From NCBI GenBank assembly GCA_963992225.1, contig CAXDTK010000001.1, positions 38,164 through 102,163 on the forward strand: a DNA stretch of 64,000 nt. Reading direction: 5' to 3'. Shown in pieces: positions 5,203 through 15,404 of the stretch. The DNA is from an uncultured Comamonadaceae bacterium. GTDB taxonomy: Bacteria > Pseudomonadota > Gammaproteobacteria > Burkholderiales > Burkholderiaceae_C. Within the stretch, counting starts at the first letter, position 1, and every line of letters starts with the position of its first letter. The notes beneath the pieces were generated by a model, which was not told where the DNA came from, did not search any database, and was given only the letters and a program-made list of their open reading frames with translations. The translations under genes and the position numbers were made by a program.

Positions 5203-5241
5203 CGCTTCTTCCGGCACATGCCAATCAACCGGGAGAAGCCC

Positions 5242-6108
5242 ATGCAGGTGGTTTCGATCATTTCGACCAAGGGCGGCGTGGGCAAGACCACGACGGCGGC
5301 CAACCTGGGCGGCTTCGCGGCCGACTCCGGGCTGCGCGTGCTGCTGCTGGACCTGGACGTGCAGCCCACGCTGTCGAGCTACTTCACGCTGACCGAACGT
5401 GCGCCGGCCGGCATCTACGAGATGCTGGCCTACAACGAGCAGCGCGCCGAGCAACTGGTGTCGCACACCGCCATCGCCGGGCTGGACCTGGTGCTGTCGA
5501 ACGACGACCGCGGCGAATTGAACACGCTGCTGCTGCATGCGCCGGACGGCAGACTGCGACTGCGTCACCTGGTGCCCACGCTCGCGCCGCGCTACGACCT
5601 GCTGCTGATCGACACCCAGGGCGCGCGCAGCGTGTTGCTCGAAATGGCGGTACTGGCCTCGGATCTGGCACTGTCGCCGGTGACGCCGGAAATCCTCGCG
5701 GCACGCGAGCTGCGCCGCGGCACCTTGCAGCTCATCGAGGACATCGCGCCGTACCGGCACCTCGGCATTGAGCCACCGCCGCTGCATCTGCTCATCAACC
5801 GCGTGCATTCGGTGTCATCCAACGCGCGGCTGATCCAGCAGGCGCTGCGGCAGGTGTTCCAGGGACAGTCCGGCGTGCGTGTGCTCGACACCGACGTGCC
5901 GGCTATCGAGGCCTATCCGCGCGCTGCCACGCAGGGCCTGCCGGTGCATCGGGTGGAGTACCGCCAGCCGGCGGGCCGCTCCGCCCCCGCGGCGCTGGAC
6001 ACCATGCGCGCGCTGGCCGGCGAGCTGTTTCCGGCGTGGCATGAGCGCTTCGCGCTCGTCACCGGCCGAGGCAGCACAGGAGGCGTCGGCCGTGGCCAGC
6101 GAGCATGA
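5242..6108 (+). CDS. parA: ParA-family ATPase
   Basis: STKGGVGKTT deviant Walker A, LLDLDVQPTLS, LLIDTQG. Confidence 0.93.
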   Translation: MQVVSIISTKGGVGKTTTAANLGGFAADSGLRVLLLDLDVQPTLSSYFTLTERAPAGIYEMLAYNEQRAEQLVSHTAIAGLDLVLSNDDRGELNTLLLHAPDGRLRLRHLVPTLAPRYDLLLIDTQGARSVLLEMAVLASDLALSPVTPEILAARELRRGTLQLIEDIAPYRHLGIEPPPLHLLINRVHSVSSNARLIQQALRQVFQGQSGVRVLDTDVPAIEAYPRAATQGLPVHRVEYRQPAGRSAPAALDTMRALAGELFPAWHERFALVTGRGSTGGVGRGQRA

Positions 6109-6349
6109 ACTGGCCCGCGGCCACAAGCGGCTGCGAGTGCTGATCGAGTTTGCCCTGAGCGAAGGATGGAAGGTGGTGCGCACCCGTGGCGGGCACCTGT
6201 TGTTCACGAAGCCGGGCTGCGCGCCGATCTACACCAGCTCGATGGCGAGCGACCACCGCGCCGAGCGCAATGCCCGTGCGCAGCTTCGCCGCGCCGACCG
6301 CCAGGCGCAGGCTGCCGAGGCATCGCCGCAGGAGAACGGCCATGGCTGA
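6092..6349 (+). CDS. Shi-like small protein with HicA-like motif
   Basis: GTG start after AGGAGG; ALSEGWKVVRTRGGHLLFTKPG; lies between parA and parB as shi does in ICEclc. Confidence 0.65.
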   Translation: MASEHELARGHKRLRVLIEFALSEGWKVVRTRGGHLLFTKPGCAPIYTSSMASDHRAERNARAQLRRADRQAQAAEASPQENGHG

Positions 6350-8021
6350 CATGACGCCGGACGACATGGCCGCCAAGCTGCTGGCCTCGGGCTTCGAGCG
6401 CAGCGGCCCTTCTGCCGCGGCCCTGACCGACCCCATCGCCGACACGCCGATGGTCGTAACGCTGGACCAGTTACGCTCCTATGACCATGACCCGCGCGTG
6501 ACGCGCAACCCAGCCTACGAGGACATCAAGGCGTCGATCCGCGAGCGCGGGCTGGACGCGCCGCCTGCCATCACGCGCCGGCCCGGCGAGCCGCACTACA
6601 TCATCCGCAACGGCGGCAACACGCGCCTGGCTATCCTGCGCGAGCTGTGGAGCGAGACGAAGGACGAACGCTTCTTCCGCATCTCCTGCCTGTTCCGCCC
6701 TTGGCCGCAGCGCGGCGAGGTGGTGATGCTCACCGGCCACCTGGCCGAGAACGAGCTGCGCGGGGGCTTGAGTTTCATCGAGCGGGCCTTGGGCGTGGAG
6801 AAGGCACGCGAGTTCTACGAGCAGGAGATGGGGCGGGACAGCGGCCAGCCACTGTCGCAGAGCGAGCTGGCGCGGCGGCTCACGGCCGATGGCTTCCCGC
6901 TGCCGCAGTCGCACATCAGCCGCATGCAGGACGCGGTGCACTACCTGCTGCCGGCGATCCCGAACCTGTTGTACGGCGGGCTGGGGCGGCACCAGGTCGA
7001 GCGGCTCGCGGTGCTGCGCAAGGCCTGCGAGCGCACCTGGGAGCGGCGTGCGCTGGGCCGCAGCCTGTCGATGGACTTCGCCGCGCTGTTCCAGGACGTG
7101 CTCGCGCAGTTCGACACGCAGCCGGACGACTTCTCACCCCAGCGCGTGCAGGACGAGCTGGTAGGCCAGATGGCCGAGCTGCTGGAAGCGGACTACGACA
7201 CGCTGGCCCTGGAGATCGACGACACGGAGAGCCGGCAACGTGCGCTGACCAGCGATCCGGCGCCGCCAGCGGCAGCACGACCTGCGGCGCCGACCGCACC
7301 TGCCCCCGAGCTGCGGCAACCTTCATCGGCTTCGTCGCCGGCTGGTCCTTCAGTGCAGTCGTCGGAGCCTCGTGCGTCCGTGCCGGCAGGTACTGGCAAG
7401 GCAGCACTGGCCGTTGGCGCCGAAGGCACGCAGCAGAACGAGCAGCACGACGAGCGCCTGCAGGGCCACATCGTGTCGCCGGCGCCGACCACCGAACGCC
7501 TGCAATCCATCCAGCGCATGGTCGCCGACCAGATGGGCGACAAGCTGCCCGACTTCGAGGCTGACGCGTTGCGCGCGATTCCCGTCCAGGCGGGCGGGCT
7601 CTACCCCATCTCGGACGTCTGGTACATCGAGCCGGGCCTGGACGTACCGGATCGGCTGCGCGTGCACATCGCGCAGTTCGCGCGCGAGATCGCCGAGGAA
7701 GCCAGCGTGGCCGAACAGGTCGAGCCTAGCGACGCCGGCATCGGCTTCGCCTGCGTGACGCCGCCAGCTGCGCGCGCGATGCCGCCGTTTGCGCGGGCGG
7801 TGCTGACGCTGCTGCAGGCGCTGTGCGCCGCACGTGCCGCAGCCGGACTCGATCGCGCCCGGCTCGCCGATGATCTGGCGCCCTTGCTGTATGGCGGCGG
7901 CGCCTACCCTCGCCTGAGCGATGCCGGGCTGGTCAAACTGTTCCGGCTGCTGCGCCTGGCGCGTCGGCTTCTGGATCTGGAAGCCGGCGCGGGCGCCAGC
8001 GCTTCCGGCCACGGCGCCTGA
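6342..8021 (+). CDS. parB: PFGI-1-class ParB-family protein (BisD-like)
   Basis: HDPRVTRNPAYEDIKASIRERGLDAPP, NGGNTRL, HLAENELRG ParB-N motifs; HTH SQSELARRL. Confidence 0.88.
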   Translation: MADMTPDDMAAKLLASGFERSGPSAAALTDPIADTPMVVTLDQLRSYDHDPRVTRNPAYEDIKASIRERGLDAPPAITRRPGEPHYIIRNGGNTRLAILRELWSETKDERFFRISCLFRPWPQRGEVVMLTGHLAENELRGGLSFIERALGVEKAREFYEQEMGRDSGQPLSQSELARRLTADGFPLPQSHISRMQDAVHYLLPAIPNLLYGGLGRHQVERLAVLRKACERTWERRALGRSLSMDFAALFQDVLAQFDTQPDDFSPQRVQDELVGQMAELLEADYDTLALEIDDTESRQRALTSDPAPPAAARPAAPTAPAPELRQPSSASSPAGPSVQSSEPRASVPAGTGKAALAVGAEGTQQNEQHDERLQGHIVSPAPTTERLQSIQRMVADQMGDKLPDFEADALRAIPVQAGGLYPISDVWYIEPGLDVPDRLRVHIAQFAREIAEEASVAEQVEPSDAGIGFACVTPPAARAMPPFARAVLTLLQALCAARAAAGLDRARLADDLAPLLYGGGAYPRLSDAGLVKLFRLLRLARRLLDLEAGAGASASGHGA

Positions 8022-8034
8022 GCGGAGATCGGCC

Positions 8035-8595
8035 ATGTCGGCACCGCACCCGCTCAACCAGGCCGTAATCGCGCAGGCGCTGCACGACCTGCGCAACGGG
8101 CAACTACGACGCTGCAAAGCGATGGGCTTCGGCGAGGAAGAACTCGATGCGCTGAAGCATCCCGAACTCGTGAGCATGCTGGTCAACGCCACTGTCTCGT
8201 GGTGCTCGGTGTCGGTCAATCGCGAAGTGCTCAAGCGATTGCTGAGCCAGGTGCATGATGTGGAGCGCGAGATCGCGACGGTCGACCGCATGCTGCGCCT
8301 GGGAGCCAGCACGGAGATGGTCAGCCGCTTCTACGGCCTGACGCATCAGGAGGTGGCCCTGCGCCGCGACATCCTCGGCCTGCCCAAGCGCAAGGGGCGC
8401 CATCCGGTGCTGGACGAGGCGCAGGACACGGCGCTATGGAAGCAGTGGAAGGCTGGCGTCACGGAGCGCGGCATCGCGCTGGACGACGAGATGGCGATGC
8501 TGGCGCTGACCATGGACCTGGCCGAGACCCTGAGCCTGCCGATGTCGGTGATCTGGTCGGCGATACGCAACTGGATCGACCAGGGGCTGGTATAG
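8035..8595 (+). CDS. DUF2857 protein (BisC-like)
   Basis: MSAPHPLNQAVIAQALHDLRNGQLRRCKAMGF, LRLGAS-EM; follows parB. Confidence 0.8.
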   Translation: MSAPHPLNQAVIAQALHDLRNGQLRRCKAMGFGEEELDALKHPELVSMLVNATVSWCSVSVNREVLKRLLSQVHDVEREIATVDRMLRLGASTEMVSRFYGLTHQEVALRRDILGLPKRKGRHPVLDEAQDTALWKQWKAGVTERGIALDDEMAMLALTMDLAETLSLPMSVIWSAIRNWIDQGLV

Positions 8596-8598
8596 GCC

Positions 8599-9825
8599 AT
8601 GGCGACCGGCGGCGCACCCCGGCGCGATGGCCCTGTGGCGCTGTCGGCGCTGTTCGACGATGCGCTGCGGGAACTGGTGCCACCCGCACCGCCGGCTGCA
8701 CGCGGCAACGCCCCTACGTCGCCGGCCGCGCCGGTCAGCGACGGCTTTCTCTACAGCGGCAACCGGCATGAGAGCGTGCCGCGCGCGCTGTTCCTCGACC
8801 GGCGCCTGACGCCACTGGAGCGCAATGCCTGGCAGGTGTTCCGCCTGCAGCTCCAGAGCGACGGTGTGACGGCGTTCCCGACCTACGACCAGCTCCGGCC
8901 CTATCTCGCGTCGATGCCTTGTGCGGCGCAGGCCTCGCACGAGACCGTGGCTCGCGCCCTGACGCTGCTGCGGCTGACGCGCTGGCTGAGCCTGGTGCGA
9001 CGACGCCGCGACCCGAAGACCGGGCGCATCCTGGGAAATCTCTACGTGCTGCACGACGAACCGCTGACGCCCTTCGAGGCGATGCAGCTCGACCCCGACT
9101 ACCTCGGCCTGGTCAGCCAAGCGCTGACCCATGCCGCGAAGGCGGTGCAGATCGTCGGCGCGAACACCCTGCGCGAGATCGCCGAAGACCCGATGCTCAA
9201 TGGCCGCACGCTGCCCACGCGCTTGCAGGTGCTGGCACAGCGCATGGCACGCAACGAATGGGCCGATGCGAGTTGTCCACAAGAGCCTGTGGATCACGAT
9301 TCCGAAGAAGGCCAGGGCGGCCTACTTCGGAATCTCGATGGCCCGTCTTCGGATTCCGAAGCAGGGCCGAAGCCCGCGCCAGACGGCTCACTTCGGAATC
9401 CGAAGGAGGACCGTACTGTACGTATGGATCGTATAAATCAAGTACGTACAGTACCGCGCGCGAAAGCGCTGCAGCACTTGCGCCTGCCCGAGCGTCTGCT
9501 GCGATTGAAGGACGAGCAGCAGAGCGGCGCGCTCGTGGCTTTGCAGCAGGTGGACGAGCCCCTTCGGCAGGCGGTGCTGGACGAATGGGATGCGCGTTGC
9601 CGCAACAGCGCGGTGCGCAACCCGGCCGGCTATCTGTTCGGCATCATCCAGAAGGCGATCCGCGGGGAGTTCAAGGCCTGGGCAGGTGACAACGGCGCAG
9701 CGCCACAAGTCGCTCGAACACCTGCGCCGGCACACGCCACACCTGCTGCCGAGTCCCGTCCCGCCGATCCCGAGGTGGCGCGCGCCTACCTGGCACAGAT
9801 TCGATCCAACCTCCGCCGCCCTTGA
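8599..9825 (+). CDS. STY4528-family ICE replication/HTH protein
   Basis: GFLYSGNRHESVPRALFLDRRLTPLERNAW, FPTYDQLRPYL, RNPAGYLFGIIQKA. Confidence 0.82.
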   Translation: MATGGAPRRDGPVALSALFDDALRELVPPAPPAARGNAPTSPAAPVSDGFLYSGNRHESVPRALFLDRRLTPLERNAWQVFRLQLQSDGVTAFPTYDQLRPYLASMPCAAQASHETVARALTLLRLTRWLSLVRRRRDPKTGRILGNLYVLHDEPLTPFEAMQLDPDYLGLVSQALTHAAKAVQIVGANTLREIAEDPMLNGRTLPTRLQVLAQRMARNEWADASCPQEPVDHDSEEGQGGLLRNLDGPSSDSEAGPKPAPDGSLRNPKEDRTVRMDRINQVRTVPRAKALQHLRLPERLLRLKDEQQSGALVALQQVDEPLRQAVLDEWDARCRNSAVRNPAGYLFGIIQKAIRGEFKAWAGDNGAAPQVARTPAPAHATPAAESRPADPEVARAYLAQIRSNLRRP

Positions 9826-9834
9826 CCGTCTGGG

Positions 9835-9851
9835 CTATCCCCAGGGGATAG
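9835..9851. repeat. 17-bp palindrome CTATCCCCAGGGGATAG, copy 1
   Basis: 8-bp arms around a central A; identical copies at 11199 and 13158. Confidence 0.95.
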
Positions 9852-9884
9852 TTGGGACAGCCCCTCTTCCGCAAGTCCGTCCCG

Positions 9885-11099
9885 TCAATCTGCTTCCACC
9901 TCTCCCGAGGATTCACCCCAATAGGCGTAGTTGAACAGTGCATCCAATTCCGTGAAGTCGGCCAGGCCCAGCGCCTGTCGCACCTCCTCGGCATGCTGGC
10001 AATACCTTGCGTAGTCGTCGGGACCGACGTTTTGCTTGTTTGGATGTAGGGGATATGCCCTGATCCCGGCCAATGCCAGCCCCGACACCGCGTTTTGGTT
10101 CATCACCGCGAACCGCTTGTTGTCAAGTGCGTGCAGCACCTCGGTCAGTAGGTTGATGCCTGCTCGCGGGATGTGCTCGAAGTGCGCATGAAGAACTGCG
10201 AAGGCGTCTCCAGGTGGGAGAGTGCCTTGGCCCACGATGTCTCTTACCGCTGCGACGAACTGACCTGGATGCTCCGCGATTCGGTTCTTGCCGCGATGCA
10301 AGCCACCCGAATGGAGCAGGCCGATCAACGTTTCAAATCGGGCCAGGAACCCTTGACTCGTATTCCCACGCGCGACGGCCCATTCCTCCAACATCCGCCT
10401 TGCCTGGCGAAGGTTGCCCTTTCGTAGGGCTTTCTGTTCCGTGAAGCCATGTTCTGAATCGTCGCTTTTCATCAACTCCAGAATGCCGGCCAACGTCGTG
10501 AAGTTCGGGCCAATCGCGCTGCTTGCCTTCTGCGCACGCTTCTTGGCCACCTTTCGGAAGATGTCGTGGATGACGTACTCCCGTTCATAGGCGTCAATGC
10601 GGTCCCTGGTCGCCGGGACGATGATTTCGTCATCGATCAGAGCGTCGAAATGCTGAGTGACCGAGGCCATCAGCGTGTCGCTCGTGCCCTCGACCAAGGC
10701 TGATGCCTCATAGTTGGCGTAGAGGCCTCCTTGTGTGAAATTGGCCGATCCGACGATCACCGAGCATCCCTTGCTGTGCTGAAAGGCGTAGATCTTCGGA
10801 TGGAATGTCTCGCTGGAATCACTGAGGTACAGCTTGAGCGCGTGTTCTTTGGTCAGCTCCAGCAGCTTTCGGAGCACGACGGGCTCGGTCAGATAGAAGT
10901 CGAGGCCGATTGCAAATCGGGCTTCCAGTCCGCGCTCAAGCGCCTTGCGCAGTGACTTCAGCAGCCCGTTCAGGGCCGATGCCTTCGCAAAGGCCACCAA
11001 GCATTCCAGGCGCTCCGCCTGCTTCAGCAGTTTCACGAGCTTGTCGCCGTGCCCGCGTTCCTCGTTCACCAGCAGTTGAACGGCGGTCTCATCCTTCAT
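9885..11099 (-). CDS. Stand-alone phospholipase D-family (HKD) nuclease with helical C-terminal domain; candidate defence gene
   Basis: Start ATG 11099 with GAAGGGGG RBS; FHPKIYAF...VIVGSANFTQGGLYANYEAS is the PLD-nuclease motif; antisense to neighbours and visibly less GC-rich. Confidence 0.8.
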   Translation of the reverse strand: MKDETAVQLLVNEERGHGDKLVKLLKQAERLECLVAFAKASALNGLLKSLRKALERGLEARFAIGLDFYLTEPVVLRKLLELTKEHALKLYLSDSSETFHPKIYAFQHSKGCSVIVGSANFTQGGLYANYEASALVEGTSDTLMASVTQHFDALIDDEIIVPATRDRIDAYEREYVIHDIFRKVAKKRAQKASSAIGPNFTTLAGILELMKSDDSEHGFTEQKALRKGNLRQARRMLEEWAVARGNTSQGFLARFETLIGLLHSGGLHRGKNRIAEHPGQFVAAVRDIVGQGTLPPGDAFAVLHAHFEHIPRAGINLLTEVLHALDNKRFAVMNQNAVSGLALAGIRAYPLHPNKQNVGPDDYARYCQHAEEVRQALGLADFTELDALFNYAYWGESSGEVEAD

Positions 11100-11198
11100 C
11101 GTTTGACCCCCTTCTTGCGTGCGGCAGCCCCAAACCAGGGGCAACCAATGGCCATTGTCCAGGTCTGCCTGCAGGCTCGGTCCTCTCCTGCCAGGCAT

Positions 11199-11215
11199 CT
11201 ATCCCCAGGGGATAG
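11199..11215. repeat. 17-bp palindrome CTATCCCCAGGGGATAG, copy 2
   Basis: Identical to 9835-9851. Confidence 0.95.
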
Positions 11216-11337
11216 CAGACACAGATCACCTTCCAGCGACTGGAAAACCAGGAGCGGCGCGGTTGCGGTTTGTTGACTGACGCCCTTCCGGGCGATGCCG
11301 ATGCTGGCGACTCGTTCCCTTACCGCGAGTCGTCACC

Positions 11338-12111
11338 ATGTCCAACGAATCCCAGCAGCCCCTGCAATTGAATCTCGGATCGCTGCGCAGCGCGATGTCA
11401 CTGACGCTGCACACCCACCACGCTTCACGCATCTGGCATGGCCGAGCGCCCGCTGAGGGCCGGCCCGGGATCATCGGCCTCAACGGCTACATCAGCGTGA
11501 TGAACAAGATGAAGCGCGGGGCCGAACAGGACGATCCTTACTCGGACTGGTGGATGCTGCGCATCGAGGACAAGCTGACGCAGACCAAGGCGAGCTTGCA
11601 GGCGCTGCGCGAGCAGGTGGACCAGGCGCTGGCCGACGTGCCACCCGCACTGTCGCTGGGCGAAAACATGAACGTGCAGCCCGTGAAGCTGCCGCTGTTC
11701 GTCAATGCGCAGCTCGGCTTCATGGCGGTGTACCTGCTGGCCGACTACGACGACCTGGCACGCAAGCTGATCCTCGCCCACCACACTGCGCTAATCGACC
11801 GCGGCACGTTGGAACGCTGGCTCAACGACGGCGCGCACGCGCTGCGCAGCCTGTTCTCCCTGGCACAGCAGTACCGCTACGCCGGCGCGACTCGCGACGA
11901 CTTCGCCTCGAAGAACGCGGTGGCGCGGGCAGCGCTGGAGAAGTTCGGCGAGCTGCCGCAGGACGTGCTCGAAGGCACGCGCCGCTCGCGCTTTGCGCCA
12001 CCGATCGCGCGGCGGGCGGGCAAGCCTGGTGCAACCGCTGAGGCCGCGCCCGTCGCTGGCGCAGCCGACGTGGCGGACGACGATCTGGACGGCGAAGGCG
12101 CCAAGGCATGA
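11338..12111 (+). CDS. PFL_4669/TIGR03761-family ICE protein (InrR-like)
   Basis: LGSLRSAMSLTLHTHHASRIWHGR, DDPYSDWWMLRIE, GTRRSRFAPPI. Confidence 0.8.
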   Translation: MSNESQQPLQLNLGSLRSAMSLTLHTHHASRIWHGRAPAEGRPGIIGLNGYISVMNKMKRGAEQDDPYSDWWMLRIEDKLTQTKASLQALREQVDQALADVPPALSLGENMNVQPVKLPLFVNAQLGFMAVYLLADYDDLARKLILAHHTALIDRGTLERWLNDGAHALRSLFSLAQQYRYAGATRDDFASKNAVARAALEKFGELPQDVLEGTRRSRFAPPIARRAGKPGATAEAAPVAGAADVADDDLDGEGAKA

Positions 12112-12659
12112 CGGCATCGCCTTCGACCGGCCAACCGGCGCGCTTCCTGCCGCTGGAACAGGCGGACTTCCAGCGCCTGGAACACGCGGGCTACCTAAAA
12201 GGCCTTTTACAGCCTTTTAAGGGTAAGGGGAGTCTGGAGGCCTGGGCCAGCCAGTGCACGGCGCTGCGCGATGACGTGATCGGCTTGGCGCAGCGGCGTG
12301 TGCTGCAACAGGCGCGGGCCTATCCCTTCTCGCTGCTCGATGTGCAACTGGCCCAGCAGACCACTGGCGCAGGCACGACCTTCCTGCGCTGGCGCAACCA
12401 CGATCGTTCCTCGATGGGCGTGGCGCTGTGGGAGTCGCTGCTCGACCGCCCGGCAACGCCGGCCTCGCTGATCGATGACCTGTACGCGATGGAGTTGCAG
12501 CGCATCGCGCTGAACATGCAGATCAGCCTCCTTCACACGCTGGGCCGCCAGGCCCAGGAGTGCGCCAGCAAGGCCGCGCAGGCCGAAGCGGCTTACCTGC
12601 GGCGTGTCCACGGGCATGCCGCGTCCGTTCCATCCACCACCCCCAAGGAGTCACCATGA
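12108..12659 (+). CDS. DUF3158-family ICE protein
   Basis: LKGLLQPFKGKG, GTTFLRWRN, LNMQISLLH; between inrR-like and ssb. Confidence 0.75.
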   Translation: MTASPSTGQPARFLPLEQADFQRLEHAGYLKGLLQPFKGKGSLEAWASQCTALRDDVIGLAQRRVLQQARAYPFSLLDVQLAQQTTGAGTTFLRWRNHDRSSMGVALWESLLDRPATPASLIDDLYAMELQRIALNMQISLLHTLGRQAQECASKAAQAEAAYLRRVHGHAASVPSTTPKESP

Positions 12660-13105
12660 GCACGCACTTCGTCGGCGAGGGCAACATCGGTTCCGCGCCG
12701 GACTATCGCGAATTCCCCAACGGCAACGACGAGCCGCGCCGGCTACTGCGCCTGAACGTCTACTTCGACAACCCGATCCCGAAGAAGGACGGCGAGTACG
12801 AGGACCGCGGCGGGTTCTGGGCACCCGTGGAGCTGTGGCACCGCGACGCCGACCACTGGCAGACGCTGTACCAGAAGGGCATGCGGGTGCTGGTGGAAGG
12901 CCGCACCGTGAAGGACGAGTGGGAAGACGCCGACGACAACGAGCGCACCACCTTCAAGATCGAGGCCCGGCGCATTGGCATTCTGCCGTACCGCCTCCAG
13001 GCTGTGACCCTCAGCGCCAGGACGCTGGAACCCGAGGCGGCAGTACCGCCGCCGAAGGAAACCAAGGGGACGAAGGCGCCGAAGGAAACCAAGGCCAAGG
13101 GCTGA
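12656..13105 (+). CDS. ssb: Single-stranded DNA-binding protein (ICE type)
   Basis: MSTHFVGEGNIGSAPDYREF, LYQKGMRVLVEGR OB-fold; GGAG RBS. Confidence 0.88.
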   Translation: MSTHFVGEGNIGSAPDYREFPNGNDEPRRLLRLNVYFDNPIPKKDGEYEDRGGFWAPVELWHRDADHWQTLYQKGMRVLVEGRTVKDEWEDADDNERTTFKIEARRIGILPYRLQAVTLSARTLEPEAAVPPPKETKGTKAPKETKAKG

Positions 13106-13157
13106 TTCCCCCGCAGGGGGCGGCTGTAGCAACCGTCAGACGCCCGCCATGCACCAG

Positions 13158-13174
13158 CTATCCCCAGGGGATAG
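13158..13174. repeat. 17-bp palindrome CTATCCCCAGGGGATAG, copy 3 (extends to 19 bp, 13157-13175)
   Basis: Identical core in the ssb-topB spacer. Confidence 0.95.
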
Positions 13175-13385
13175 CGCCAGGGTGTTCCACCGAGTTCCAG
13201 CCGCCCTCCCGAAACGACGCTCCCGCTGCGCCAGCCTTTGCGGTCAGGTCGTACCTGCTGCGGCAACGCATCGCCCGCCGTTCACAAAGCGGTGTCTATG
13301 CCGATCGGCTTCCTTGCTGCCGTCATCCGCTGGCCCGGCCAAGCTGGGGGCCATCCGATGAACCGCACACTTCCAAGGAGGCTTC

Positions 13386-15404
13386 ATGCGCGTGTTCCTG
13401 TGCGAGAAGCCGTCCCAGGGCAAGGACATCGCCCGTGTACTGGGCGCGGGCCAACGCGGCAACGGCTGCTACAGCGGTGCGGGTGTCGTCGTGACCTGGT
13501 GCATCGGTCATCTGGTCGAAGCGGTTGCGCCCGAAGGCTATGGCGAGCAGTACAAGCGCTGGGCCATCGAGCAACTGCCCATTCTTCCCGAGCGCTGGCG
13601 TGTCGAACCCAAGGCGGCGACCGCGGCGCAGTTCAAGGTCGTGCAGCAGCTCGTCGCCAAGGCGGGCGAGCTGGTGATCGCGACTGACGCCGACCGCGAA
13701 GGCGAGATGATCGCCCGCGAAATCATCGAGCTGTGCGGCTACCGCGGCCCAATCCAGCGGTTGTGGCTGTCCGCGCTCAACGATGCGTCGATCCGCAAGG
13801 CCCTGGCGGCGCTCAAGCCGTCCGTCGAGACGCTGCCGCTGTACTTCTCCGCGCTCGCCCGATCGCGTGCCGACTGGCTGATCGGGATGAACCTAAGCCG
13901 CCTGTTCACGTTGCTCGGGCGCCAGGCCGGCTACAACGGCGTGCTGTCGGTCGGGCGTGTGCAGACGCCCACGCTCAAGCTGGTCGTGGACCGTGATCGC
14001 GAGATCGCACGCTTCGTCTCGGTGCCGTTCTGGGCCATCGAGGTCGCGCTTTCGCATGCGGGCCAGTCCTTCGTCGCAAGCTGGATGCCGCCGCAGGGCA
14101 GCGCCGACGACGCCGGCCGCTGCCTGCAGCAGCCGGTGGCGCAGCAGGCAACCGCACAACTGCGCGCGGCCGGCGCCGCCCAGGTGCTGTCGGTGGAGAC
14201 CGAGCGCGTGCGCGAAGGCCCGCCGCTGCCGTTCGACCTCGGCACCTTGCAGGAGGTGTGCTCCAAGCAGTTGGGCCTCGACGTGCAGGAAACGCTGGAC
14301 ATTGCCCAGGCGCTGTACGAGACGCACAAGGCGACCACGTATCCGCGCTCGGATTCAGGCTACCTGCCCGAGAGCATGCTGGCAGATGTGCCGGCCGTCC
14401 TCGACAGCCTGGTCAAGACCGATCCCAGCCTGCGACCGCTGATCGACCGCCTGGATCGCCAACAGCGTTCGCGGGCCTGGAACGACGGCAAGATCACGGC
14501 GCACCACGGCATCATTCCGACGCTGGAACCGGCCAACCTCTCGGCGATGAGCGACAAGGAGCTGGCCGTCTACCGATTGGTCCGCGCGCACTACCTCGCG
14601 CAGTTCCTGCCGCATCACGAGTTCGACCGGACGGTGGCGCAGCTTACGTGCGGCGGGCAGTCGCTGGTCGCGGTCGGCAAGCAGATCGCGGTGGCCGGAT
14701 GGCGCCAGGTGCTGGCGGCGCCGGAGCCCGACGACACGGACGGCGAGGACGCGCAGCGCGGCCAGGTGCTGCCGGCGTTGCGCGCCGGGGCCTCCTGCCA
14801 GGTCGGCCAGGTCGAACTGAAGGCGTTGAAGACGCTGCCGCCCAAGCCCTACACGCAAGGCGAACTGGTCAAAGCCATGAAAGGCGTCGCCAAGCTAGTG
14901 ACCGACCCGCGCCTGAAGCAGAAGCTCAAGGACACCACGGGCATCGGCACCGAGGCCACACGTGCCAACATCATCAGCGGGTTGCTGGCCCGCGGTTATC
15001 TCTTGAAGAAGGGCCGTGCCATCCGCGCGTCGGATGCGGCATTCACGCTGATCGACGCGGTGCCGGCGGCCATCGCCGATCCGGGCACGACGGCGGTGTG
15101 GGAGCAGGCGCTGGACATGATCGAGGCCGGTCAGATGACGCTGGACACCTTCATCGCCAAGCAATCGAGCTGGGTCGCCCAGCTCGTGCAGCAGTACCGC
15201 AGCGCCACACTCGATCTCAAGCTGCCGCCTGCACCGAGCTGCCCGCAATGCGGCGCCCCGATGCGCCAGCGCAGCGGCAAGAGCGGCGCGTTTTGGTCTT
15301 GCAGCCGCTATCCGGACTGCAAGGGCACGCAGCCGATCGAAGACGCCGCGGCAGGCAAGCGCGGCGCGTCCAGCCCGCGGCATCGGCGTCCCAAGGCGAG
15401 CTGA
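13386..15404 (+). CDS. topB: DNA topoisomerase III
   Basis: LCEKPSQ, ATDADREGE Toprim, SVGRVQTPTL, TYPRSD active-site Tyr, GIGTEATRA, C-terminal zinc ribbon. Confidence 0.95.
   Translation: MRVFLCEKPSQGKDIARVLGAGQRGNGCYSGAGVVVTWCIGHLVEAVAPEGYGEQYKRWAIEQLPILPERWRVEPKAATAAQFKVVQQLVAKAGELVIATDADREGEMIAREIIELCGYRGPIQRLWLSALNDASIRKALAALKPSVETLPLYFSALARSRADWLIGMNLSRLFTLLGRQAGYNGVLSVGRVQTPTLKLVVDRDREIARFVSVPFWAIEVALSHAGQSFVASWMPPQGSADDAGRCLQQPVAQQATAQLRAAGAAQVLSVETERVREGPPLPFDLGTLQEVCSKQLGLDVQETLDIAQALYETHKATTYPRSDSGYLPESMLADVPAVLDSLVKTDPSLRPLIDRLDRQQRSRAWNDGKITAHHGIIPTLEPANLSAMSDKELAVYRLVRAHYLAQFLPHHEFDRTVAQLTCGGQSLVAVGKQIAVAGWRQVLAAPEPDDTDGEDAQRGQVLPALRAGASCQVGQVELKALKTLPPKPYTQGELVKAMKGVAKLVTDPRLKQKLKDTTGIGTEATRANIISGLLARGYLLKKGRAIRASDAAFTLIDAVPAAIADPGTTAVWEQALDMIEAGQMTLDTFIAKQSSWVAQLVQQYRSATLDLKLPPAPSCPQCGAPMRQRSGKSGAFWSCSRYPDCKGTQPIEDAAAGKRGASSPRHRRPKAS

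Follow-up and report, generated by a model that had tools for sequence, protein, structure and literature searches.

The PLD gene and its neighbourhood

We analysed a 64,000-nucleotide stretch of DNA (the window) from an uncultured Comamonadaceae bacterium (assembly GCA_963992225.1, contig CAXDTK010000001.1, positions 38,164 to 102,163 of the forward strand), in which a nuclease gene of the phospholipase D (PLD) superfamily lies between two copies of a 17-bp palindrome. By its gene content, the region is the regulatory core of an integrative conjugative element (ICE) of the ICEclc/PFGI-1 type. The palindrome, CTATCCCCAGGGGATAG, occurs exactly three times in the window, at 9835-9851 (copy A), 11199-11215 (copy B) and 13158-13174 (copy C), each time with 8-bp arms and a central A on the plus strand. 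Chance would give about 0.05 matches even at 3 mismatches, none of 100 shuffles attained the observed palindrome count, and the whole 5.75-Mb assembly holds no further copy at up to 2 mismatches. Copy A lies 9 nt past the stop codon (9823-9825) of an STY4528-family gene, and copy C lies in the ssb-topB spacer, with 52 nt between it and the end of ssb and 211 nt between it and the start of topB. Between copies A and B there is a single antisense gene (9885-11099, minus strand), whose tail and leader measure 33 and 99 bp; GC content is about 57-60% there versus 65-72% outside. The coordinates and GC values thus agree with a preliminary description of this DNA, which had reported two identical 17-bp palindromes around a lone antisense, less GC-rich PLD gene and a third copy at 13158. 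It had also reported no transposase or integrase inside, and indeed the PLD gene is the sole gene between copies A and B.

The PLD gene encodes 404 aa. Both a good ribosome-binding site and the starts of homologues place its own start at the ATG at 11099; a longer open reading frame (ORF) reaching 11198 is not supported. The leader (11100-11198, minus strand) has no consensus promoter, and a promoter scan found no sigma-70 promoter for the gene. The N-terminal part is a single-HKD nuclease-type PLD domain with the HxK motif FHPKIY and GSANFT, both invariant in 7 homologues. Pfam gave PLDc_2 (1.2e-11, above cut-off), RE_NgoFVII (1.1e-6) and OGG-like (3.3e-4, weak and sub-threshold), and sequence matches in the PDB were SauUSI (7clg, 2.4e-8) and BfiI. 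With an AlphaFold2 (AF2) model (pLDDT 80), the best Foldseek matches were SauUSI, NgoAVII, BfiI, NucT and Nuc, dominated by the N-terminal PLD domain. PADLOC matched at the domain level only (DrmC, type IV restriction endonuclease (REase), MkoB and ZacB, residues ~4-195), with no full-length match to a PADLOC defence family and no partner genes. The remaining ~220 residues (~185-404; window 9885-10550) form a predicted all-helical C-terminal domain in which the motifs HSGGxxR and GINLxTExLHxLDNxRxAVMNQN are invariant. From sequence and predicted structure, the cargo protein is assigned to the nuclease-type PLD superfamily (Nuc/BfiI/SauUSI N-domain), and a role in DNA-targeting defence or in addiction is plausible.

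The genes around the slot follow one another on the plus strand from the BisD homologue onward. A parA-like gene (5218-6108) precedes a homologue of BisD, a ParB-like CTP clamp and activator subunit (6186-8021, plus strand; NCBIfam TIGR03764 ICE_PFGI_1_parB, E 5.7e-118), in which the GxxR motif is present as GGNTR. The longest BisD ORF opens with a GTG at 6186 and an Arg/Ala-rich, non-protein-like N-terminus; the true start is likely the ATG at 6342 (MADMTPDD...), which would give ~559 aa, compared with 550 aa for BisD of ICEclc. A homologue of BisC follows (7921-8595, plus strand; Pfam DUF2857, E 1.9e-63; start codon uncertain), then the STY4528-family gene in the position of orf96323 of ICEclc (8599-9825, plus strand; NCBIfam NF040582, E 4.9e-121). 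The final ~45-60 codons of the latter (window 9690-9825) are hypervariable and Pro/Ala-rich among relatives that are otherwise 90-100% identical, and alignment suggests that this tail is a recurrent recombination boundary. Beyond copy B come an inrR-like gene of the AcaB/PFL_4669 family (11338-12111, plus strand; Pfam AcaB 4.5e-82, TIGR03761 8.8e-89), a DUF3158 gene (12108-12659, plus strand; Pfam 4.4e-89), ssb (12656-13105, plus strand; Pfam SSB 1.7e-13) and, past copy C, a topoisomerase III-like topB (13386-15404, plus strand; Pfam Topoisom_bac 6.2e-112, Toprim and Zn ribbon). No recombinase is found among the genes called between parA (5218) and topB.

Palindromes of this kind could act as RNA or single-stranded DNA, being hairpin terminators, stabilisers or REP/MITE-like repeats. 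Indeed, the palindrome could fold into a GC-rich stem of 7 bp with a loop of 3 nt, and variant copies in relatives (described below) change symmetrically in both arms. Binding by a protein dimer, however, would lead one to expect such symmetric changes just as much. A T-tract follows none of the three copies, a promoter/terminator scan found no terminator at any of them, and Rfam gave no match at a permissive threshold across window 9500-13500. Just three copies exist in 5.7 Mb, and the ICE holds all of them; at copy B, ahead of the inrR promoter, neither a terminator nor a stabiliser would have an obvious role. We regard action at this level as extremely improbable.

The palindromes as probable bisS sites

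The ICE best suited for comparison is ICEclc, for which we draw on two reports (PMC12409273 and PMC7423338). There, bisS is defined as GAGCTATCCCCnGGGGATAGCTC, the parS-like loading site of the ParB-like BisD-CTP clamp (PMC12409273). ICEclc has two bisS copies 2 kb apart, at inrR and at ssb; both form the highest BisD peaks in chromatin immunoprecipitation (ChIP), a single copy of either kind suffices for BisD foci in an ICE-free host, and BisD alone suffices for foci on cloned bisS (PMC12409273). Furthermore, bisS-1 DNA stimulates CTP hydrolysis by BisD, which spreads from bisS and co-activates BisC-bound promoters (PMC12409273). BisD of ICEclc is ParB-like and 550 aa long, BisC contains DUF2857, and the genes stand in the order bisD-bisC-orf96323-orf95213-inrR (PMC12409273; PMC7423338).

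All three window copies match the 17-bp bisS core exactly. The outer GAG/CTC arms of bisS are partly kept: copy C reads AGCTATCCCCAGGGGATAGCG, and the arms of A and B are 8 bp. Positions agree as well. Copy B, which ends 122 nt upstream of the inrR-like start, is the equivalent of bisS-1, and copy C, 211 nt upstream of topB, that of bisS-2; the two are 1959 bp apart, in line with ~2 kb in ICEclc, and their places at the inrR-like gene and at ssb are the published ones. Copy A, directly after the STY4528 stop, is an extra predicted BisD loading site. BisD and BisC homologues are encoded directly upstream on the same element. Because the published core is matched, the published positions are matched and cognate BisD and BisC genes adjoin, we conclude that the three palindromes are very probably bisS sites, and the PLD gene accessory cargo in a dispensable gap rather than a palindrome-captured cassette. 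BisD would accordingly be expected to bind copies A, B and C. A literature search with the palindrome as a literal string gave no match; the site was reached via ICEclc keywords. The preliminary description had listed a parS-like role among its alternatives, and the bisS match shows that alternative to have been the right one.

Likeness among the copies extends beyond 17 bp. A module, NNGRACAS-N4-YCTTCC, directly follows copies A and B, at window 9852-9870 (TTGGGACAGCCCCTCTTCC, plus strand) and 11216-11234; it is absent after copy C and does not recur window-wide. The module also stands to the right of the equivalents of copies A and B in relatives, cargo-bearing or not. It is possible that it provides a BisC contact or an extended BisD contact.

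We then considered that the palindromes may be origin iterons, or sites for the STY4528-family 'replication protein', instead of or besides ParB sites. Copy A and the multi-copy clusters of relatives do abut the 3' end of the STY4528 gene, and the NCBIfam name of that family is pathogenicity-island replication protein. Against this, BisD alone was sufficient for foci on cloned bisS (PMC12409273), one conserved copy lies 3.3 kb away, past ssb, and, in contrast to iteron arrays, the copies stand 69-168 bp apart and are separated by unique sequence. An origin function is therefore highly unlikely.

bisS number and cargo in related elements

We scanned one genome per species (596 Gb) for the exact 17-mer and obtained at least 117 loci (numbered L below), with about 69 hits expected by chance; the few loci without ICE genes nearby (e.g., L008 and L047) are consistent with this chance background. 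Loci were oriented by the window proteins, and for 71 of them, window included, we extracted the spacer that separates the STY4528 stop and the inrR-like start. Counts below refer to the loci listed in this way. In 184 distinct sites, drawn from many genera, each of the 16 arm positions is 97-100% invariant, while the proteins flanking the sites are merely 52-97% identical, a pattern that fits recognition of the site by a protein dimer. The flanks tend towards GAG...CTC (52-72%), in line with the published consensus. Any base can stand at the centre (A 54%, T 41%, G/C 5%), and we rejected the idea that a copy's 'orientation', a central A versus T, is meaningful, since the centre varies freely, with G and C included.

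The positions of the sites are also conserved. That of copy A, 2-52 nt past the STY4528 stop, is occupied in most relatives listed, and the last bisS before the inrR-like (AcaB-family) gene lies ~120-137 nt from its start. Among 68 relatives listed with an ssb-topB spacer, this spacer holds one bisS in 66, two in one (L058, 31 bp apart) and none in one (L056); in most it lies 197-214 nt, typically 207-212 nt, before the topB start. None of the 68 has a palindrome-flanked insert there. The sole insert in this spacer among the relatives listed is that of L056, which has no palindrome in it. In this distant Pseudomonas family member, the spacer contains two small paralogous genes (5600-6280) for proteins of 79-90 aa with a C-terminal hydrophobic helix.

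The number of sites between the STY4528 and inrR-like genes is variable. Gene-free spacers, 42 of the 71, are 135-445 bp long and carry one bisS in 6 cases, two in 27, three in 5 and no canonical copy in 4. Two copies without an insert, 69-143 bp apart, are thus the commonest state of the gene-free spacers listed. The three-copy arrays arose by duplication of a 132-bp bisS-to-bisS unit (L055, L074 and L109 versus L041, L052 and L065). Two Pseudomonas ICEs have five bisS directly after the STY4528 homologue (L063, 4964-5357; L049, 3609-4002), most with full GAGC...GCTC arms. Unique spacers of 70-88 bp separate these copies, and Tandem Repeats Finder reported no repeat in the L063 cluster; judged by their layout, both clusters look parS-like and not like a tandem repeat. 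The four spacers without a canonical bisS (L045, L061, L029 and L050) all belong to elements that keep the canonical CTATCCCCnGGGGATAG in the ssb-topB spacer. In L045, a symmetric variant palindrome, cGGTCCCCnGGGGACCg, occurs three times, ~120 bp apart (spacer positions 52, 171 and 294); L061 would have three copies of it too, and L029 has two recognisable ones. The variant may reflect an altered or relaxed specificity of BisD.

Cargo is found at one place. All 29 occupied spacers listed hold their extra DNA between the first and last bisS, and the contents are of at least seven different kinds: a RelB/PaaA2-ParE pair (5 loci), a second ParE pair with a small putative antitoxin that has no Pfam match (L038), an Xre-RES pair (3 loci), a 287-aa OST-HTH protein (15 loci), the PLD nuclease (the window, L073 and L068; also L015, L084, L122 and L123), a 1131-aa SF1 helicase (L035) and a helicase remnant with an HTH gene (L033). 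A protein-based search at 81% identity or higher found the OST-HTH gene between two bisS in 59 of 62 close loci. Distant OST-HTH homologues (71-77%) and distant PLD homologues (L121 at 66%, L124 and L125) are located elsewhere, with neither bisS nor ICE genes nearby. The inter-bisS gap is a real and varied cargo hotspot across this ICE family. At loci L132-L189, the slot gene encodes a 287-aa OST-HTH/LOTUS protein with 95-100% identity across dozens of genera of Beta- and Gammaproteobacteria; from this identity, its carriers look like an epidemic ICE lineage.

The preliminary description took the palindrome for a site dedicated to the recombination or capture of single-gene cassettes and the third copy for an empty one; on this model, insertion is what duplicates the palindrome. 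Several features of the slot favour this. Two copies enclose every occupied slot, and what the slots contain is diverse; none of the insert-bearing relatives listed has a single bisS, and the slot does not lack a variety of genes, so that two of the contrary outcomes named in the description did not turn up. Moreover, with the insert and one repeat taken out, the window spacer would look like those of the single-copy relatives L072 and L031. The number of copies, however, argues against capture. Two or three copies are present in 32 of the 42 gene-free spacers listed and five in each of two further loci, so that a duplicated palindrome does not mark an insertion; empty relatives with two copies, which the description had named as a contrary outcome, account for 27 of these spacers. 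Conversely, contents of two elements (L195, an insertion sequence (IS) plus an OST-HTH gene) or of 3.4 kb (the L035 gene) are flanked by two bisS with none inside, contrary to a rule of one site per cassette. The number of bisS is independent of the number of cargo genes, and slot genes also live outside the slot. Nor is copy C an empty site: it is bisS-2, held at a fixed distance from topB in most relatives, and the ssb-topB spacer never carries a palindrome-flanked insert in the 68 relatives listed, its sole insert there lacking the palindrome. There is no recombinase in or beside the slot, and a different function of the site has been demonstrated (bisS; PMC12409273). A target-site duplication made by an IS or transposon was likewise rejected, as only the PLD gene lies inside and both copies pre-exist in gene-free relatives.

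Junctions of the cargo block and comparison with known systems

A tree of AcaB proteins groups the window (support 97/87) with four gene-free elements bearing two or three bisS. Presence of the PLD gene requires at least two to three changes on this tree, and near-identical AcaB backbones bear three different cargos. We compared the window with its closest gene-free relatives, L081 and L027. The identity of 85-100% is lost ~140-190 bp to the left of copy A, from ~9690, and returns 47-60 bp to the right of copy B, at TGCGGTTTGTTGACTGAC; it resumes in a conserved element of the inrR promoter region, GGTTTGTTGACTGAC (11267-11281, plus strand), which occurs once in the window. In other pairs the junctions differ. 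L083 and L020 break at bisS-B on the right and ~160 bp out on the left. Between PLD-bearing L073 and the OST-HTH class (14 loci), the 400-bp flanks are 95-100% identical up to both bisS, and identity continues for only 9 and 0 bp inside. Junctions outside the palindromes, in the window and several other pairs, speak against a capture site, and the exact breaks of L073 at both palindromes speak for one.

Public sequencing data hold the block as well. In two metagenomes it forms its own unitig of 1745-1751 bp (~9650-11398) between shared flanks of high depth, with breaks at ~9650-9690 and 11370-11400, away from the palindromes. The block at 9700-11300 is present with a single-nucleotide polymorphism (10314 G>C) in many public runs with at least seven organism labels, plus the two metagenomes; the PLD-bearing ICE variant is widely disseminated. 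Contigs of public runs are continuous through both palindromes and the PLD gene, and in the contigs of eight runs no joint skips from copy A to copy B (9851 to 11199), though contigs drop rare variants. One metagenome contig joins 9686 to 11199 via 34 other letters and is read as a co-occurring gene-free relative. We also looked for a near-identical insert-free ICE among 60 relatives of the host genome and found only one ICE, of ~80% identity and with apparently ~1 kb of cargo. The copy numbers and junctions above make a dedicated capture site very unlikely. The accessory-gene slot of the preliminary description stands, with its seven or more contents; the palindrome as the site of recombination or capture is not supported, given the published function of bisS and the junctions elsewhere.

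The variable junctions, at whichever conserved island is available, point instead to homologous recombination between related ICEs and not to a site-specific reaction. If the palindromes are bisS sites, BisD would load there as a CTP-dependent clamp and then slide along the element, and BisD together with BisC would switch on the transfer-competence promoters. Copy A would be an extra site, kept by many family members directly after the STY4528-family gene. Selection would hold bisS-A and bisS-B in place, and the DNA between them would be functionless; the gap would therefore be the one insertion-tolerant spot in a compact core. Different lineages would have filled it with small cargo of a maintenance or defence type, here a nuclease of the restriction type. 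Blocks of cargo would pass between related ICEs by crossovers in shared short islands, be it conserved STY4528 sequence, a bisS or the inrR promoter element, and the exchanged block in the window would span ~9690-11262, both palindromes included.

A number of points weigh against reading the palindromes as bisS sites around ordinary cargo. Published BisD binding refers to the 23-bp sites of ICEclc, and the window copies keep arms of 8-9 bp. The loci were retrieved through an exact match to the palindrome, with one genome per species, so the counts describe a biased sample. The L073 junctions at both bisS would also fit a recombination role of the palindrome. Finally, the closest donor found for the window block, L073, has 73.6% DNA identity. 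The route by which the block was acquired is thus inferred.

An extension of the bisS reading is that bisS both loads BisD and is a preferred crossover point, for cargo exchange and for expansion of the arrays. The cause could be that bisS is the longest perfectly conserved island between diverged ICEs, or that forks stall at a palindrome that is bound by BisD or prone to form cruciforms, which would favour template switching. In favour are the junctions at both bisS between L073 and the 14 OST-HTH loci and at bisS-B in the L073, L083 and L020 comparisons, the mismatch of L073 bisS-A in its inner arm only, the three-copy arrays made by duplicating a bisS-to-bisS unit, and the three cargos on near-identical AcaB backbones. 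On the other side, the remaining junctions fall at other conserved islands and bisS is not special in most pairs, an identity of 17-23 bp is at or under the usual minimum for RecA-dependent exchange, and any strongly constrained site mimics a homology boundary between diverged sequences. We therefore think a crossover preference rather unlikely. Paired bisS with such a double duty, BisD loading and service as portable recombination arms, would make the gap a modular, family-wide exchange slot for addiction and defence genes, and genes lying where BisD loads might be turned on or off specifically in cells competent for transfer, a proposal we put forward only tentatively and do not expect to hold; if it were true, the exact bisS-to-bisS replacement of OST-HTH by PLD in L073 and the expansion to three to five copies would be its footprints. 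Present evidence favours ordinary recombination, and bisS also guiding cargo exchange is a minority possibility.

The main value of these results is correct annotation. Read as bisS, the window palindromes are further examples of a site that is already known and defined by experiment. They mark where BisD would load on an ICE of the ICEclc family, and this ICE is found nearly unchanged in many hosts. The survey adds that bisS commonly occupies a third position, directly after the orf96323 homologue, that its copy number runs from one to five, that a symmetric variant site exists (GGTCCCCnGGGGACC) and that a small cargo slot between the sites collects toxin-antitoxin (TA) and nuclease genes; a term search turned up none of these in the bisS report (PMC12409273), nor a slot between duplicated bisS in ICEclc-family papers. 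Should bisS guide cargo exchange, or couple cargo expression to transfer competence, ParB-clamp biology would be linked to the flux of accessory genes.

Among known systems, the closest is bisS/BisD-BisC of ICEclc in Pseudomonas knackmussii and P. putida. It shares the 17-bp core CTATCCCCnGGGGATAG, the sites upstream of inrR and downstream of ssb ~2 kb apart, and the gene order parA, BisD, BisC, STY4528/orf96323, slot, inrR, DUF3158, ssb, topB. The window differs in having three copies rather than two, arms of 8-9 bp rather than 11 bp, an additional copy directly after the orf96323 homologue, and an antisense PLD nuclease in the slot where ICEclc has orf95213. Clusters of parS with ParB, and KorB-OB of RK2, are similar in their short palindromes, CTP-dependent clamps of the ParB family, copies near par genes and action on distant promoters, and the five-copy clusters of L049 and L063 recall sopC or parS arrays. 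In contrast to ParB systems, BisD is an activator that works jointly with BisC and has no known role in partitioning or repression, and the Pseudomonas parS consensus, TGTTCCACGTGGAAC, is unrelated to the window palindrome. Integron cassettes with attC/attI resemble the slot in that small, promoter-poor, varied accessory genes occupy one position bounded by imperfect palindromes. Unlike an integron, the slot has no integrase, the number of sites is uncoupled from that of genes, gene-free arrays are common, and junctions do not always fall at the site, which has another function, proven in ICEclc. The slot also resembles the variable-region hotspots of ICEs such as SXT/R391 and the ICEclc family (PMC10732049), where intergenic spots of the core tolerate TA and defence inserts and mosaicism arises through recombination between co-resident ICEs.

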